This document shows, piece by piece, positions 25,819 to 33,035 of a stretch of DNA of 64,000 bases (position 1 is the first letter of the stretch; each line of letters opens with the position of its first letter). Position numbers and translations under genes: made by a program. Source of the stretch: an uncultured cyanobacterium (lineage in GTDB: Bacteria > Cyanobacteriota > Cyanobacteriia > Cyanobacteriales > CAWUOF01); NCBI GenBank assembly GCA_963744145.1, contig CAVUSO010000001.1, forward strand, positions 3,360,001 through 3,424,000, read 5' to 3'. Below the pieces are notes generated by a model. That model made no database searches. It was not told the origin of the DNA and saw nothing but the letters and a program-made list of their open reading frames with translations.

Positions 25819-27573
25819 TTAACATAATAACTCCTCTAATTTTTGCTCATTCCAGAGGGACTGATATAAACCATGTTCTTGCAATAGTTCTGCATGACTA
25901 CCAATTTGAATAATTTCACCACGATCCATGACAAAAATTCGATCAGCAGTTGCCGCAGCTGACATTTGGTGAGAAATAAAAATAACCGTTTGGCGATCGC
26001 GTTTAAAACTCAAATTCTTCAAAATATCTGTGGCTGTCTGATTATCCACGCTTGAAAGAGCATCATCTAAAATTAAGATTGGTGCATCGATCAGTAATGC
26101 TCTTGCTAATGCTGTTCTTTGTCTTTGTCCTCCCGACAGAGTTATACCTCGTTCGCCAACGATCGTATCATATTGTTGGGGAAAGTTGATAATTTCTGTA
26201 TAAATTTGTGCTTGTTTAGCGACATTTTCTACTTCGGCTAGTTCAACTAGGGGATTACCATAACGGATGTTATTTTGGATCGTAGTGCTAAACAGAAAAC
26301 TATCTTGGGGTACATAAGCGATCGCACTTCGTAAATCTTCTAGTTGCAATTCGGTTATATCATATCCATCCAAGAATAGTTGTCCTGACTCTAACTCTAA
26401 TAAACGTGGAATTATGTTCGCTAAAGTGGTTTTTCCTGCCCCAATTGGCCCAACAATTGCAACTGTTTCTCCTGGTACAATTTCAAAGCTGATATTTTTT
26501 AATATAGGTGCTTTTGCTCCTGGATAGGTAAAAGTCAAATTATTGGCTTTTAACAGTCCTTTTACTGGTTTTGGTAATGCGATCGCATGAGGACTATTTT
26601 TAATTTTTGGCTCCACGGTCATAATTGATTCTACCCGATCAATACTTACTTCCCCTCGTTGGTAAGCAGTAATCGTAAAACCTAGTAACGCGGTGGGAAA
26701 AACTAAACGTTCTACATATAAGATGAGCGCTAAAAAGTTACCGACAGTAATCTCACCGCTCGCGATCGTTCTCCCTCCAAAAACTAGTAAGATTAAGAAA
26801 CTTGTACTTGCTAACCCGATCAAAATGGGAAATAATATAGATCGAGTTTGCGCGAGGCTAATATTAGCTTCTAATAGCTCCTGATTCATTAACCCAAAAG
26901 CACGACGTTCGTTTTCTTCTTGGGTGTAGATTTTAATCGAAGCAATACCACTAATATCTTCTTGAATCAGATCGCTTAAGTTAGATAGTTTTTCTTGGAC
27001 TTCTAGTTGTTGATTCCTTAACCGATCGCTAAATAAGTGGACTAACAGTAGCATTAATGGATAAACTGTGATCGCTAATAGGGTTAATCTCACGTTAATC
27101 CATAACATTACTGGTAAAGTCAAAGCATAAGCAAATGTTGTGTTAGCAAGACTCAGCAGTGCAAATCCTACCAAACGTCGAATATTATCAACATCGCTAG
27201 TGGCACGATTAATTAAATCTCCAGCAGTATTAGTAGCAAAATAAGATGGTTCCAGAGTTAATAGATGTTCAAAAATCCTTTGCTTTAAATCAAATTCTAC
27301 CTGTCTTCCTAGTCCAAATAATAATAATCGTGAGACAATTCTAATCACCCACATGATGCTAGCTAAGATAAAAATTAGCACCGCATAATTCAAAACTTTG
27401 TTAAAACTAAAAGTTATTTGCAGATCGTCAATAGTTTGACGAATCAGGAGCGGAATATAAACACCAAGTCCATTTACCACTAAGAGTGAGAAAATACCAA
27501 GTCCCAATTTCCATTTATGGGGACGTAGATAACCAATCAGTTTTTGGAATCGATAACTACTAGCGGTTGTCAT
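25819..27573 (-). CDS. ABC transporter, fused permease and ATP-binding domains
   Basis: TM domain plus Walker A GPIGAGKT, LSGGQRQR, ILDD. Confidence 0.93.
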   Translation of the reverse strand: MTTASSYRFQKLIGYLRPHKWKLGLGIFSLLVVNGLGVYIPLLIRQTIDDLQITFSFNKVLNYAVLIFILASIMWVIRIVSRLLLFGLGRQVEFDLKQRIFEHLLTLEPSYFATNTAGDLINRATSDVDNIRRLVGFALLSLANTTFAYALTLPVMLWINVRLTLLAITVYPLMLLLVHLFSDRLRNQQLEVQEKLSNLSDLIQEDISGIASIKIYTQEENERRAFGLMNQELLEANISLAQTRSILFPILIGLASTSFLILLVFGGRTIASGEITVGNFLALILYVERLVFPTALLGFTITAYQRGEVSIDRVESIMTVEPKIKNSPHAIALPKPVKGLLKANNLTFTYPGAKAPILKNISFEIVPGETVAIVGPIGAGKTTLANIIPRLLELESGQLFLDGYDITELQLEDLRSAIAYVPQDSFLFSTTIQNNIRYGNPLVELAEVENVAKQAQIYTEIINFPQQYDTIVGERGITLSGGQRQRTALARALLIDAPILILDDALSSVDNQTATDILKNLSFKRDRQTVIFISHQMSAAATADRIFVMDRGEIIQIGSHAELLQEHGLYQSLWNEQKLEELLC

Positions 27574-27737
27574 AGAGGGAATTGGGAATTAATAACTGAA
27601 CAGGGTATGGGCTAAGTTTCCATTATAAATTATATCATGATCAAGATTACCTAACCAAGTATGACAATAATTAGGTAAGTTTGATTTAGGCGATCGCTTA
27701 CTAAAATTAGCTTTGTGATCGGATCAATAATTCTATA

Positions 27738-28124
27738 TTACCGCTCTAAAAACTCCATTACTTCTAATATAACCTCAGCAATATCTGGTTTTTTGCAAGC
27801 AATTACTTGATCAGGAAGATGTTTATGGTGTGGAAAACTGGGCAAGTTAGGAAAATGCGGTGTGCTATCATAGCGAAAAATCAAATTATTTTGTTCGTCT
27901 TGGAAATGATATCGATAATCTATGTAGATAATCTGGTTATTTGCAAGGACTAGAATTTCACTAATTGCTAATAAATATTTAATGGCAAAGCGTATTCTCA
28001 TGCGAAAATTAGCTCTCTCTGTCGTTAAAATGACTGCATTGTATTCCTCAACGTAGGCATTATAACAGTTAAGAAAAAGTTGCTCAATTTTATCAAAATA
28101 GGCAGAGAAAACTTTAGGCGACAT
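27738..28124 (-). CDS. DUF6516/TumE-like toxin
   Basis: YRYHFQD...FRYDSTPHFPNLPSFPHHKH motif; overlaps the small upstream gene. Confidence 0.75.
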   Translation of the reverse strand: MSPKVFSAYFDKIEQLFLNCYNAYVEEYNAVILTTERANFRMRIRFAIKYLLAISEILVLANNQIIYIDYRYHFQDEQNNLIFRYDSTPHFPNLPSFPHHKHLPDQVIACKKPDIAEVILEVMEFLER

Positions 28125-28344
28125 TTCTGAGTTTACTCTCTAGGTATTGATGTAAAGCTAAATAATGTTGATAATTTCCTGCCCATTCAATCAACTCTTC
28201 ATCATCAGTTGTTTTCCCTTGACTATATTTAGTAAAAAACTCTTCTGAATCCATTTGATATTTTATTTCATAGATATTTAGCTGTTTGACAGTGCCAACC
28301 AGTGCATCTAATGGTGATGTGTATTCAATAATTTGCTTACGCAT
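28114..28344 (-). CDS. TumA-like antitoxin
   Basis: 76 aa, YEIKYQMDSEEFF...LIEWAGNYQHY; overlaps the toxin start. Confidence 0.7.
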   Translation of the reverse strand: MRKQIIEYTSPLDALVGTVKQLNIYEIKYQMDSEEFFTKYSQGKTTDDEELIEWAGNYQHYLALHQYLESKLRNVA

Positions 28345-28442
28345 GGTTTTATTTACTTAATTTTAACTCAAGTTGATGATTTTATCCTAATTATACTAAA
28401 TACTTGCAAAATGGCTAGAACCTAAATATTTTTAGCAAATCA

Positions 28443-28514
28443 AGCGGGCGATGGGACTCGAACCCACGACGTTTAGCTTGGGAAGCTAACATTCTACCAC
28501 TGAATTACGCCCGC
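28443..28514 (-). tRNA. tRNA-Gly(CCC)
   Basis: Reverse complement GCGGGCGTAATTCAGTGGTAGAATGTTAGCTTCCCAAGCTAA...GTTCGAGTCCCATCGCCCGCT. Anticodon CCC. Confidence 0.97.
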
Positions 28515-28559
28515 GTCAAGTAAAATGGTTATAGTTTTTCGTAAAAACTAATTATAACA

Positions 28560-28745
28560 CAATCCGGTTCAGTTAACCGTAGGGGCAAAGCATTTCGGCA
28601 AATCAATAATTGCCCAAACGCTTGCCCTGAGTTTACCCTGAGCCTTGCCCTGAGCGTAGTCGAAGGGGTAGCCGAAGGGCGTAGTCGAAGGGAAGAAGAA
28701 TATTACCGAAATGCTTTGCCCTCAATCTATGCAGCCAACAGATCA
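28560..28745. repeat. Partial MITE/REP composite
   Basis: CAATCCGGTTCAGTTAA end, then hairpin gtaggggcaaagcatttcgg...ccgaaatgctttgccct enclosing gtagtcgaaggg units. Confidence 0.7.
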
Positions 28746-28810
28746 ACTATAATACAATCCGGTTCAGTTAAGAATATTTTTGGGGATCTCGGCAGAAGAA
28801 GGGTGAAGCA

Positions 28811-29580
28811 GTTAGAGAGTCGATGGTAGGGTGTCCCCTACCATCTCTCCTTCAAAACCGTGCTTGCGACTTTCACCGCACACGGCTCCTGAGTAAAGTA
28901 ATCCTTGTCATAGATACGATATTGTGGAGTGCTCCTACGATACCGCTTGACACATTCTGGTTTACCCCTGTATCCCCACCTTCAGTTTGCACCTTGGTAT
29001 TAGGCTTATCTAGGGTGACTAAAAACTGTGCCGTTTACCTCACCCGGTGCTGTCAGCAGATCTCTGTCATTACGGCAGAGCTTTGGCTTCTGCAACCATC
29101 CCTCACACTCACAACTTCCGGTTAGCTACCTACTTGTGTGACAAGAGCTGTGAGTGCTTTACTTCGTTCCGATTACACATTGTTTGAACTTTTAGCGTGA
29201 TGCTTTCCACCGGGTTTATTGGCAGTGCTAATCAGTCAATCCGAAAATTGCTGATGCCTAATCCTTGCCTTTTGGCTTGGTCAATCAGCCATTTGACCAT
29301 CTATTATAACGATGGTTCAGACGCATCTTCACTTGCGTTACACATCAGTTCTTGCTTGACAGCTACCCCAGTTGGCTAAGAGTATTTCTGCCTTTTATCC
29401 CCGCTTTATCCTGCTGGTTGCTACCCAACACAATATGGGATATGCTTTCACTCCTGCACTTGGAGGCCCTGACTTGGGGAGGAACCCCGCACAAGGATAT
29501 GTAATCAGTTGTCAAGGTTCTGTGGAACCAGGCTAACCGTCCCTAAGTATTTCTACTCATTTAGGTTAAACGAATCGCAC
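28811..29580 (-). ncRNA. ORF-less group II intron (IIB-like), 770 nt
   Basis: 5' end GTGCGATTCG. Domain V GAGCCGTGTGCGGTGAAAGTCGCAAGCACGGTTT. Domain VI hairpin ending CTAAC. EBS1/EBS2 loops complementary to the flank. No RT ORF. Confidence 0.92.
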
Positions 29581-29600
29581 TTCGGGTATAATATTACTGC

Positions 29601-29732
29601 CCCCTTCGACTCTGCTCAGGGCAAGCTTCGACTCCGCCCCCTTCGACTCCGCCCTTCGACTACGCCCTTCGACTACGCTCAGGGTAAACTCAGGGTAAAC
29701 TCAGGGTAAACTCAGGGTAAACTCAGGGTAAA
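29601..29732. repeat. CCCTTCGACT units and 11-bp tandem (CTCAGGGTAAA) x5
   Basis: Read directly. Related units are at 28625-28692 (inverted) and 10482-10495. Confidence 0.85.
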
Positions 29733-29801
29733 GTTTGATCGCTCAATTGTCGCCCAAATGCTTCGCCCCTACGCTTAACTGAACCGTATTGTCTTATAGC
29801 C

Positions 29802-32800
29802 CTATTTTCTGATTTTAATTTTACCATTTTGATGTTCCGCTGAGGGTTGTAGTAATTTTTTCTGCCCCAATTGGCTGTTCGCTCTGAATATTTTTTCTTT
29901 CCAACCACCGCGCAAAAATTGTTCCAATCCCTGTTGGAAACTATCAATATAGGTAAATAATACTGGAACTACTACTAAAGTCAGCAGTGTCGAAGTAGTA
30001 AAACCCCCAATTACGGCGATCGCCATCGGAGCCCGGATCTGGGAACCAGCACCAATCCCTAACGCGATCGGCATCATTCCCGATATGGTGGAAACTGAAG
30101 TCATCATAATTGGACGTAAACGTGATACTCCAGATTCTAGTACCGCTTGCGATCGCGACATTCCTTCCGCTTGATTACTTAATGCACAATCTACTAATAA
30201 GATCGCATTTTTGGTCACCAATCCCATTAGTAACACAATTCCAATTAGCGCAAATAGCCCTAATTCTTTTTGCATTACCATCAATCCCATTAAAGCACCA
30301 CCGACAGATAAAGGTAAAGCTACTAAAATAGTTAACGGAATCAAAAATCCGTTATATAATAGCACTAAAATTGCATAAATACATAATATTGCCATACCGA
30401 GTGCCCCCAAAAAGCGCCCAAAAATGTCTTGCATGATTTTCGCATCCCCTGCTGACTGCTGAGAAACATCGGTCGGGAGAGGATTTAAAGCTGGTAAAAC
30501 TTTTATTTTATCTAGAGCATCTCCTAATGATATCCCTTGTAAATTGGCTTCAACTGATACCTGACGAGCGCGATCGTAACGGTCGATTTTAGCTGGACCG
30601 CTGCCCAAGGTAATATTTGCGACAGCCGATAAAGGAACCATTTGTCTCGTTTGACTAGGAATCTGAATATTTTTCAAAATATCCAAATTGTTGCGAAATT
30701 CCTCAGCTAATAAAACCCGAATGGGAATTTGTCGATCGGGTAAATCAAACTTAGCTAAATTAGCGTCAATATCTCCTAATGTTGCTAAAGAAGCTGTATG
30801 AGCGATCGCAGATACAGAAACCCCTAGATCTGCTGCTCTTGCTGGGTCTGGTTTGATTAAAATCTCTGGTTGAACTAAACTAGCACTAGAATATACTTCC
30901 ACTAGACCGGAAATTTCTCGCATTTGTCGTTCTAAATTTTCAGCAGTTTGATTCAGAGCAGTTGCATTTTCGCTTTTCAGTAGAATTGTTACATCTTTAT
31001 TATTACCCGCTCCACCACCACTTAAAAAACCAATATGAGCCCCAGGTATTTCTTGAAATTGCGATCGCATTTCCTGCTCAAATTGCTGCTGAGAAATCTT
31101 TCTTTCTTCTCGCGGTGTCAGATTAACATAAAGCGTACCTGAATTGACATTGATATTACCATTTTCATTATTCCCTGCTGTAGCTAAAACACCTGTAACA
31201 ATCGGATTTTCCCGTAATAATTTAGTGAGTCTGTTCATGACTTTTTCCGTGTCATTAACAGTAGAACCTGGAGGTAGTTCAATTGTCACTGTACTTAACC
31301 CAATATCGCCACTATTAAATAAACCTTTAGGAATTAATGGAACTAGCATCAAGCTACCAATAAAGAAAACTATCGCGATCGCTAAAGTTGTTAATCTATG
31401 TCTTAATGACCAACTCAGTAAACTACGATAAGGATGAAATTGTGTTGGGAAAATCCCAAATTTTTTACCTAACTTATCTTTTTGGTGATGTTGATGTTTC
31501 GTACCCCTCATTACAAATGCTCCTAACATCGGGGTCATGGTTCGAGCTACTAAAACAGAAAATGAAGTAGATACCGCTACTGTTACTCCAAACGGTCCAA
31601 AAAATTGACCAGGAATTCCCCCCATAAAAGCTACGGGTAAGAATACTGCAATAATTGTTGCACTTGATGCTAATACAGCAAACCCAATTTCAGCTGAGGA
31701 ATCTAAGGATGCTTGTTCTGGACTTTTTCCCATTTCCAGATGTTGATCAATATTTTCTACTTCTACTACTGTATCATCTACCAAGTTACCCACTGTCAGT
31801 GCTAATGCTAACAAAGTCATTCCATTGAGAGTGTAACCTAGTAGGTTCATGACCGCATAAGTGGGAATAATTGATAGGGGTAAAGAAACTGCTGTAATTA
31901 AAGTTGGTCTCCAATCGCGCAAAAATATTAAAATTGCTATTACTGCGAGAATCGAAGCTTCGATTAAAGAGTGAATCGAAGCTTCATAAGCATCTATGAT
32001 CTCAGTAGCTTTAGTGAAAATAAGTTGAAATTTAATATCTGATGGGAGAGTTTTTTCTAAGTCCTGGATTGCGGTGCGTACTCCATGTTCGACACTAACC
32101 AGGGTACTACCTGTACTTCTGAGGATGGAAAAAGCAACTACTGGTTTACCTATGTCTAATTCAGAATTAAGGAGCGAGGATTTTTCTTTAGCTCCTTTAC
32201 CAACAGCAAAACGAGCTATTTGACGAGTTTCTGCTTGTCCATCTGTAACTTTTGCTAAACTTTCTAAGGATACTGCTGCACCACTAGGAAGGGTAATCTG
32301 ATATTTTCGTAATTTTTCTATACTATCCGCACTACCCAAAGTTCGGATACTCTGTTCACTACCACTTAAAGTTGATCTTCCTCCAGGTAAGTTAGTATTA
32401 AAAGCGCGAATTTGATCATTAACTTGAGTAGCAGTAATTCCTAAAGCTTGTAAGCGATCGGGATTGAGTTCGATCCTGATTTCTCGATCGATCCCTCCGA
32501 CGCGCTGAATCTGAGCAACTCCGGAAACTGCTAAGAGAGCGCGGGTAATTCTTCGATCTACTAAATCACTTAATTCTTCAACCGATCGCTGTTCTGATAC
32601 GACCGCGTAGGTCATAATAGAACCACCAGCAAATTCTAGTCTTTTGATGACTGGATCGTTAATATCTTGGGGGAGATTTTGTCTAATTTGAGCGATCGCA
32701 TTCCGCACATCATTAGTAGCGCGATCGCTATTAGTTCCCAGCACAAAATTTATCACTGTGGTAGATATCCCATCTTTAACTGTTGAGGTGAGGAAATCGA

Positions 32801-33035
32801 TATTTCCTAAACTAGCAACAGCATCTTCAACTTTTTTAGTTACTTGAGATTCTAATTCAGCTGGTCCAGCTCCTGTTTGAGTTACAGTAACGGAAACTGC
32901 TGGAACATCTATATTTGGATTAGAGTCAATCCCTAATTGAGTAAAAGACATCCAACCTACCATAGTCAATATTAAAAACATTACAATAGTAGGTAGAGGT
33001 TTTTTGATTGCCCAAGCAGAAAGATTAAAAGACAT
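29802..33035 (-). CDS. RND efflux permease (AcrB family)
   Basis: 1077 aa; LVDDTVVEVEN, KNAILLVD, RLRPIMMT. Confidence 0.95.
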   Translation of the reverse strand: MSFNLSAWAIKKPLPTIVMFLILTMVGWMSFTQLGIDSNPNIDVPAVSVTVTQTGAGPAELESQVTKKVEDAVASLGNIDFLTSTVKDGISTTVINFVLGTNSDRATNDVRNAIAQIRQNLPQDINDPVIKRLEFAGGSIMTYAVVSEQRSVEELSDLVDRRITRALLAVSGVAQIQRVGGIDREIRIELNPDRLQALGITATQVNDQIRAFNTNLPGGRSTLSGSEQSIRTLGSADSIEKLRKYQITLPSGAAVSLESLAKVTDGQAETRQIARFAVGKGAKEKSSLLNSELDIGKPVVAFSILRSTGSTLVSVEHGVRTAIQDLEKTLPSDIKFQLIFTKATEIIDAYEASIHSLIEASILAVIAILIFLRDWRPTLITAVSLPLSIIPTYAVMNLLGYTLNGMTLLALALTVGNLVDDTVVEVENIDQHLEMGKSPEQASLDSSAEIGFAVLASSATIIAVFLPVAFMGGIPGQFFGPFGVTVAVSTSFSVLVARTMTPMLGAFVMRGTKHQHHQKDKLGKKFGIFPTQFHPYRSLLSWSLRHRLTTLAIAIVFFIGSLMLVPLIPKGLFNSGDIGLSTVTIELPPGSTVNDTEKVMNRLTKLLRENPIVTGVLATAGNNENGNINVNSGTLYVNLTPREERKISQQQFEQEMRSQFQEIPGAHIGFLSGGGAGNNKDVTILLKSENATALNQTAENLERQMREISGLVEVYSSASLVQPEILIKPDPARAADLGVSVSAIAHTASLATLGDIDANLAKFDLPDRQIPIRVLLAEEFRNNLDILKNIQIPSQTRQMVPLSAVANITLGSGPAKIDRYDRARQVSVEANLQGISLGDALDKIKVLPALNPLPTDVSQQSAGDAKIMQDIFGRFLGALGMAILCIYAILVLLYNGFLIPLTILVALPLSVGGALMGLMVMQKELGLFALIGIVLLMGLVTKNAILLVDCALSNQAEGMSRSQAVLESGVSRLRPIMMTSVSTISGMMPIALGIGAGSQIRAPMAIAVIGGFTTSTLLTLVVVPVLFTYIDSFQQGLEQFLRGGWKEKIFRANSQLGQKKLLQPSAEHQNGKIKIRK

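Follow-up and report, generated by a model that had tools for sequence, protein, structure and literature searches.

A 64,000-nt stretch of an uncultured cyanobacterial genome, hereafter the window, contains a 770-nt group II intron that lacks an ORF and interrupts one arm of a dispersed extragenic palindromic repeat. We consider it probable, on the sequence comparisons set out below, that this is a stranded element: single-copy, ORF-less and currently immobile, and drawn from a lineage that was mobile after its ORF had been lost.

The intron and its palindromic target

The minus-strand intron sequence opens with GTGCG at 29580 (GTGCGATTCG) and closes with CTAAC at 28811 (...CGACTCTCTAAC); the consensus for group II intron ends is 5' GUGYG and 3' AY. 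The same 5' end is common to 23 relatives, and the 3' CUAAC is shared with four of them that recur below (L007, L036, L038 and L039). RF00029, the Rfam family of group II domains V-VI, scored 59.5 bits over 28814-28890 (-), above its gathering score of 40 (E 4.1e-10), while the Rfam bacterial D1-D4 families gave no match at E values up to 1 in the interval searched, 26000-33000. The single intron-strand ORF of at least 40 aa within the intron is 50 aa long, and the longest antisense ORF (100 aa) matched no Pfam family; the element is therefore ORF-less. Alignment with the ORF-containing relatives L038 and L036 shows that ~1,640 nt, with the IEP gene, are absent from domain IV. The first-pass annotation of this DNA had proposed an ORF-less group II intron with no RT ORF, to be checked against Rfam group II models and by folding. 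Both proposals are upheld by the RF00029 match, the intact ends, a covarying domain I-III fold and an intron-strand ORF of at most 50 aa.

Immediately 5' of EBS1 the family has an invariant U, and the first base of the 3' exon is variable (T or A), a combination that argues against a IIA-type delta pairing, as far as alignments can tell. The element is IIB-like, and full members of its family encode an RT-maturase-HNH protein.

The 5' exon ends in ...TATTATA-CCCGAA (29593..29581, -). Removing the intron restores CCCGAA/TGCTTCACCC (a slash marks the insertion point here and below), that is, the 16-mer CCCGAATGCTTCACCC. This 16-mer occurs in the 7.70-Mb genome 105 times exactly, 368 times with at most one mismatch and 569 times with at most two; simple arithmetic predicts ~0.004 exact copies by chance. 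Because the restored 16-mer is repeated genome-wide, both splice sites are fixed to the base and the target can be recognized as a dispersed repeat. A restored hairpin arm beginning CCCGAA had been predicted, with a partner arm at 29753-29772. These genome sites bear out the former, and the partner, GGGGCGAAGCATTTGGG, does lie there, at 29769..29753.

We found 164 oriented copies of the repeat, 122 of them with the left arm within ~70 nt upstream of the target site, and 120 of these 122 were aligned into a consensus: GTTCAGTTAAGTGTAG-GGGCGAAGCATTCGGG-(~33 nt)-AGTAATATTATA-TCCGAATGCTTCGCCC-TTCTT...CTTAACTGAAC. Within it GTTCAGTTAAG...CTTAACTGAAC are inverted, and conservation runs somewhat past the right end. 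The hairpin arms of the repeat are usually ~33 nt apart; in the window copy the partner and target arms are separated by the 11-mer and 13-mer arrays, and the 3' arm is split by the intron. Two sequence types appear among the 16-mer sites, and they are the two orientations of one palindromic element. Just 12 of the 565 repeat sites on contig C1 fall in ORFs that measure 150 codons or more from stop to stop, although such ORFs make up 79.6% of that contig. The repeat is thus both extragenic and palindromic.

Whether it should be called a REP is a separate matter. The genome has 17 matches to PF01797 (Y1 transposase), and of the 14 places checked, 13 had no repeat core within 600 nt; the remaining one had a single repeat-core match, inside the gene match. 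With no RAYT-type transposase beside the repeat, we therefore label it REP/MITE-like and not REP, so that of the REP hairpin originally proposed the abundant extragenic palindrome stands and the flanking RAYT does not. A literature search on small dispersed repeats in cyanobacteria returned nothing relevant to this repeat. The loops of both window repeat copies hold tandem 11-, 12- and 13-mer arrays (CTCAGGGTAAA, CTTCGACTACGCC and relatives), and in many other copies in the genome the same arrays replace the left arm; this loop looks like a preferred place for short tandem repeats to insert or expand.

Coordinates of the intron, its target repeat and its neighbors in the window
Feature	Position	Strand	Basis or remark
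ORF-less group II intron, GUGCG...CUAAC	28811..29580	-	770 nt; RF00029 match, ends, ORF scan
Domains V and VI	28814..28890	-	RF00029; sister L007 78/80 identical, intron nt 691-770
Reduced domain IV, intron nt 531-690	28891..29050	-	alignment with L038 and L036; colinear with L007
EBS1 UUCGGA, intron nt 336-341	29240..29245	-	terminal loop of covarying hairpin
EBS2 UAUAAUA, intron nt 273-279	29302..29308	-	5' strand of internal loop
IBS1 CCCGAA; also 5' half of interrupted repeat arm	29581..29586	-	
IBS2 TATTATA	29587..29593	-	within repeat consensus (AGTAATATTATA before arm)
3' exon start TGCTTCACCC, 3' half of interrupted repeat arm	28801..28810	-	
Partner hairpin arm GGGGCGAAGCATTTGGG	29753..29769	-	
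Host repeat copy, inverted ends ~GTTCAGTTAAG...CTTAACTGAAC	28747..29799	-	inverted repeat I3; 120-copy consensus
Tandem arrays in hairpin loop, 13-mer x 3.9 and 11-mer x 5.0	29626..29732	.	
Second repeat copy, inverted, more degenerate, with own tandem arrays	28553..28721	+	inverted repeats I1, I11
Tandem arrays of second repeat copy	28621..28692		
Upstream AcrB/RND transporter gene	29802..33035	-	PF00873, 788.8 bits; ends 221 nt before intron
Downstream tRNA-Gly (CCC)	28443..28514	-	296 nt past intron

The exact junction TATTAKAYCCGAAGTGCGAYTCG had no match in genome contigs and none in metagenome contigs, where the 3' junction was likewise unmatched; the shorter CCGAAGTGCGAYTCGTTTA had three matches, all in MAGs of Nitrospira and Pirellulales where the flanks are unrelated. 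Scanning genome and metagenome contigs for the exact junction thus revealed no intron in the same target elsewhere. None of the listed sequencing runs contained at least half of the sampled words of the stretch. The best, a soil metagenome (X1, 0.34), has some pieces identical to the window, 3' junction included, and may be the sample of origin. Joints across the intron in X1 were considered as an empty allele and rejected, as they come from other copies of the repeat. An RNA run (X17) yielded only relatives ~90% alike, and a DNA run (X4) has a relative in the site AATTCCGGT/TGCACCGGAATT. A contig from X5, ~92% alike, reaches 17 nt into the same 5' exon and is a possible closer relative.

Exon-binding sites, relatives and RNA fold

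The pairing of the intron with its target was assessed in 24 family members aligned over domain I, by comparing each member's own 5' exon with the exons of the others. The 23 loci taken for their intact 5' ends start with GTGCGAYTCGTTTA or, in one case, GTGCGAGTCG, and their 5' exons are all different. Over exon positions -1 to -6, EBS1 forms on average 5.21 of 6 pairs with the own exon and 2.59 with others' exons; for EBS2 the mean longest helix is 5.71 with the own exon and 4.23 with others'. None of 10,000 permutations reached the own value in either test, and both tests are inflated by kinship among the sequences. The signal is nonetheless plain, given the many different EBS1 hexamers. The comparison indicates that EBS1 and EBS2 are real and lie at the exon-binding positions of the intron family, and not outside domain I's EBS positions.

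In the window copy EBS2 pairs with IBS2 at 7/7 positions and EBS1 with CCCGAA at 5/6; EBS1 would pair 6/6 with TCCGAA, the commoner variant of the repeat. For EBS1, the first-pass annotation had named UUUCGG. Its stem-loop and flank match hold good, but the register is one base off, UUCGGA being the reading that the 24 relatives give. Its EBS2, UAUAAUA, does pair 7/7 with TATTATA, but the local stem-loop drawn around it gives way to an internal loop. The helix with covariation behind it is a long-range one, CCAUCG:CGGUGG (alignment columns 291-296:442-447), in which one sequence shows a double change to A-U and four show C-G, and not the local CCAUC/GAUGG stem-loop; EBS2 thus forms the 5' strand of an internal loop.

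Of 401 genomes of the same order searched at the DNA level, 210 gave matches, among them the intron's own. The top relative, L007, belongs to another genus (genome G349), is likewise ORF-less and is 79% identical over all 770 nt: 433/539 positions in domains I-III, 107/164 in the reduced domain IV, which is colinear, and 78/80 in domains V-VI. Because the two share this colinear reduced domain IV and both lack the same ~1,640 nt of the ORF-containing relatives, sequence comparison suggests that they descend from a common ORF-less ancestor. The insertion point of L007 is a different one, ...ATATCAATTCCGGT/TGCACCGTAGGTGCAACCGGAA, within the 5' arm of a perfect 13-bp hairpin, and the EBS1 (AUCGGA) and EBS2 (UAUGAUA) of this sister each differ from the window's by one base, in step with its exon. 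Sisters do occupy other targets, then, and the EBS change with them. The restored L007 site has 68 matches in G349 at no more than one mismatch, against 4 for a reversed control. Many of these TTCCGGTTGCACC-type sites occur as inverted pairs 65-110 nt apart, which points to a second, unrelated palindromic dispersed repeat family, hosting the sister intron.

It is conceivable, though we rate it as rather doubtful, that the window copy belongs, with its closest ORF-less sisters, to a small non-autonomous sublineage that has come to specialise in extragenic palindromic repeats and that moved between GGGYGAAGCATTCGGG-type and TTCCGGTTGCACC-type targets. Retargeting between the repeat families would then have taken a single base change in EBS1 and another in EBS2. 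Were this so, the genome of the window would contain a dormant intron facing ~100 perfectly matching empty sites, and the arrival of a cognate RT-maturase could therefore trigger an insertion burst. As a rule for the whole family, hairpin targets are rejected: the ORF-less L039 occupies an unremarkable, non-hairpin site, and the ORF-less L037 (G170:C6) is nested, its end (...CTCTCTAAC) directly preceding domain V of a second group II intron. With both of these outside hairpin repeats, the preference is at most a trait of a small sub-lineage. In the L037 twintron the RF00029 domain V-VI matches lie at 862-938 and 952-1028, 14 nt apart.

The RNAalifold consensus of a 17-sequence alignment that includes the window copy has 138 pairs, with compensatory changes in 71. 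The window copy retains 132 of the 138, and its 5' and 3' ends and all invariant columns of that alignment are intact; the modelled fold of the intron looks intact. Highly conserved columns deviate at 22/305 in the window copy, 17/300 in L007 and 53/308 in a further relative, L025. Three stem pairs are broken in the window copy and intact in L007, so that, together with the 22 deviating columns, some decay is possible. Between these two copies 33 consensus pairs differ. Fourteen changed on both sides, and 13 of these are paired in both copies; a one-sided change affected 19, of which 10 can still pair in both copies, and pairing is lost at 3 in the window copy and at 6 in L007. Since 13 of the 14 two-sided changes kept their pairing, selection on the fold appears to have gone on after ORF loss.

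These data bear on whether the intron is instead a decaying relic, unable to splice and sitting inert in junk DNA. For good splicing in vivo a maturase is needed by most bacterial group II introns, and none was found in this genome; the conserved-column deviations and the 6 broken pairs also speak for a relic, as does the non-coding site, where there would be no selection for splicing. We nevertheless think a relic unlikely: domains V-VI are almost identical to those of the sister, both ends and the invariant columns are intact, and the deviations are on a par with the sister's and far fewer than those of L025.

Copy number, empty sites and the search for a helper

The window genome is assembled in four contigs and is 96.3% complete. 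BLAST of the intron against it returned a single match, and RF00029 gave one match among 150 scored of 314 candidates. Among the 569 repeat sites, 102 are uninterrupted copies that would pair 7/7 over IBS2 and at least 5/6 over IBS1, and all are empty; 29 of these match the occupied site at every base of IBS2 and IBS1 and at the first three exon positions, and 65 read TATTATA TCCGAA/TGC, with which the pairing is 13/13.

Full members of the family encode IEPs of 572-576 aa with RVT_N, RVT_1, GIIM and HNH domains, such as L036 (572 aa). We found no match to the GIIM maturase domain (PF08388) in the window genome, with 30 candidates scored, and three matches to RVT_1: Drt5, a 275-aa RT and a 336-aa group-II-like RT. 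The 336-aa protein scores 299.8 bits against TIGR04416 and spans only positions 3-271 of that profile's 353, so it has no X domain. Family IEPs searched against the genome hit only this RT, at 31-36% identity, and weakly the 275-aa RT; no cognate IEP was found. The 336-aa RT was considered as the intron's helper and rejected, because it is without an X domain and no intron RNA lies around it, no Rfam family being matched there.

The three RTs have settings of their own. The group-II-like RT (331-336 aa; G000:C1:5091596-5092606, L003 1258-2253) lies directly upstream of Cas1 and Cas2, with neighbors at L003 2286-3344 and 3361-3621 and a DDE transposase fragment upstream; its position before Cas1/Cas2 points to a CRISPR adaptation module in which the RT is a protein of its own. 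Drt5, an antiviral RT, is full-length (C1:3189607-3191091, L004; 659 bits against a cut-off of 550). The 275-aa RT ORF (C1:5012059-5012886, L005), which we take to be DGR-type from a motif, may be truncated.

The repeat had been pictured in the first-pass annotation as a multi-copy landing site for a ribozyme served by an RT in trans, and an RT-encoding relative was to be sought in the genome. In this genome the searches lend that picture no support: they found one copy beside 102 empty sites, no GIIM domain or cognate IEP, and a single group-II-like RT that is CRISPR-linked and lacks the X domain. The helper-less state is uncommon yet not unique among the sampled genomes of the order, 264/401 of which have GIIM. 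Besides the window genome, 29 have a strong intron match (E below 1e-30), and GIIM is present in 28 of them and absent from the other, G397. There a domain I match (L033) has 70% identity at E 3.2e-36, and the genome-wide search found no GIIM; by sequence, G397 may hold another helper-less copy.

The history that we propose is as follows. In a single event an intron ribonucleoprotein would have reverse-spliced into one copy of the extragenic palindromic repeat, in its 3' arm, the site being selected by pairing of EBS2 with IBS2 (7 bp) and of EBS1 with IBS1 (5 bp); we infer this step because the EBS and IBS match. The intron would then not have spread, although ~100 other repeat copies pair equally well or better, and three observations suggest that it is immobile at present: it has one copy, many matching sites are empty, and no IEP was found. 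A single copy is compatible either with insertion into this repeat copy or with arrival together with it.

An active non-autonomous retroelement, moving among the repeat copies with an IEP supplied in trans by an unassembled replicon, an incoming element or an RT of relaxed specificity, is a rival reading. Its EBS pair perfectly or nearly so with 102 empty sites, and the fold looks intact. The four-contig, 96.3% complete assembly makes a helper on an unassembled plasmid possible. Elsewhere, ORF-less relatives coexist with full IEP introns, as in G349, where L007 is accompanied by L038, a relative complete at 2.4 kb whose ORF encodes a 576-aa RVT_N-RVT_1-GIIM-HNH protein; and trans-mobilisation of ORF-less cyanobacterial introns was shown experimentally in the work reported in PMC2882425. 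Against activity stand the one copy facing ~100 equivalent sites and a genome without a GIIM domain or cognate IEP, whose only group-II-like RT is CRISPR-linked and lacks the X domain. The sister L007 is also single-copy in G349, despite the helper and 68 target-like sites. We regard present activity as quite unlikely and favor the stranded element.

The neighborhood of the intron matters for its transcription. As the first-pass annotation had it, the intron shares its strand with the upstream RND gene and the downstream tRNA-Gly, all three being on the minus strand. If read-through from the RND gene transcribes the intron, splicing may still rejoin the repeat arm, given the modelled fold. Takeover by the host, for instance for processing or stabilising the RND operon transcript at its 3' end or the tRNA-Gly precursor, has only position in its favor (the shared strand, 221 nt past the RND gene and 296 nt before the tRNA gene, and no terminator-like site found on that strand between the RND gene and the intron), but is highly improbable, as the same junction is unoccupied in every other species representative scanned and in the sole same-family genome searched the match is confined to domains V-VI, at 74%. 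Just downstream of the tRNA gene (27738-28344, -), a 76-aa ORF of no known family overlaps a 128-aa TumE-family toxin gene, and the two are probably a toxin-antitoxin pair.

Comparison with known systems

We regard the window intron as a well-supported and fairly ordinary stranded mobile element. ORF-less introns, their trans-mobilisation and insertion into other mobile DNA are already known biology. A survey from 2022 counts 888 of 13,041 introns as lacking an IEP (PMC8919778).

The nearest parallel among cyanobacteria is Thermosynechococcus elongatus, whose ORF-less introns are described as mobilised in trans (Mohr, Ghanem and Lambowitz, 2010, PMC2882425). Like TeI3 as presented there, the window intron is an ORF-less cyanobacterial derivative that arose by deletion in domain IV, its EBS pair well with the flanking IBS, and changes in the EBS open new targets; TeI3 introns, too, are mostly intergenic or within other mobile DNA. 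Unlike TeI3, for which that paper lists 17 introns and six potentially active IEPs, the window genome has one copy and no IEP that we could find. Family F4 of TeI3 has a conserved site in the IS200-like ISEL1 (PMC2882425), an insertion sequence, whereas the target here is a short hairpin repeat.

Insertion at hairpins also recalls class C (IIC) introns, which the review in PMC4424553 places at terminator hairpins and attC sites, in that a multi-copy DNA hairpin motif is targeted. The window intron differs from class C as characterized there in having an EBS2, a 13-nt site match and a family IEP with an HNH domain, and in lying inside a hairpin arm and not after the hairpin; its target recognition looks sequence-based, judging from the pairing. 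Our literature search for group II introns in REP or MITE repeats found only a table entry for Pseudomonas putida KT2440, in which 2 of 9 group II intron copies are REP-associated (PMC1525189). These copies resemble the window intron in being group II introns at an extragenic palindromic repeat, a comparison made by that table entry alone, which gives neither ORF-less status nor EBS/IBS.

In the account of the 2015 review, bacterial introns without an ORF are rare, nearly all of them have a related IEP in the same genome, and C.te.I1 of Clostridium tetani is the sole known bacterial ORF-less intron in an IEP-free genome (PMC4424553). The window intron is like C.te.I1, as portrayed there, in being a solitary ORF-less intron with no IEP-related helper in its genome; it differs in phylum and, we assume, in intron lineage. 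It offers a clean second type of case, one that is solitary, helper-less, predicted to be structurally intact and surrounded by ~100 empty cognate sites, and with it a natural test bed for whether the RNA splices alone and whether protein is the sole limit on its spread.
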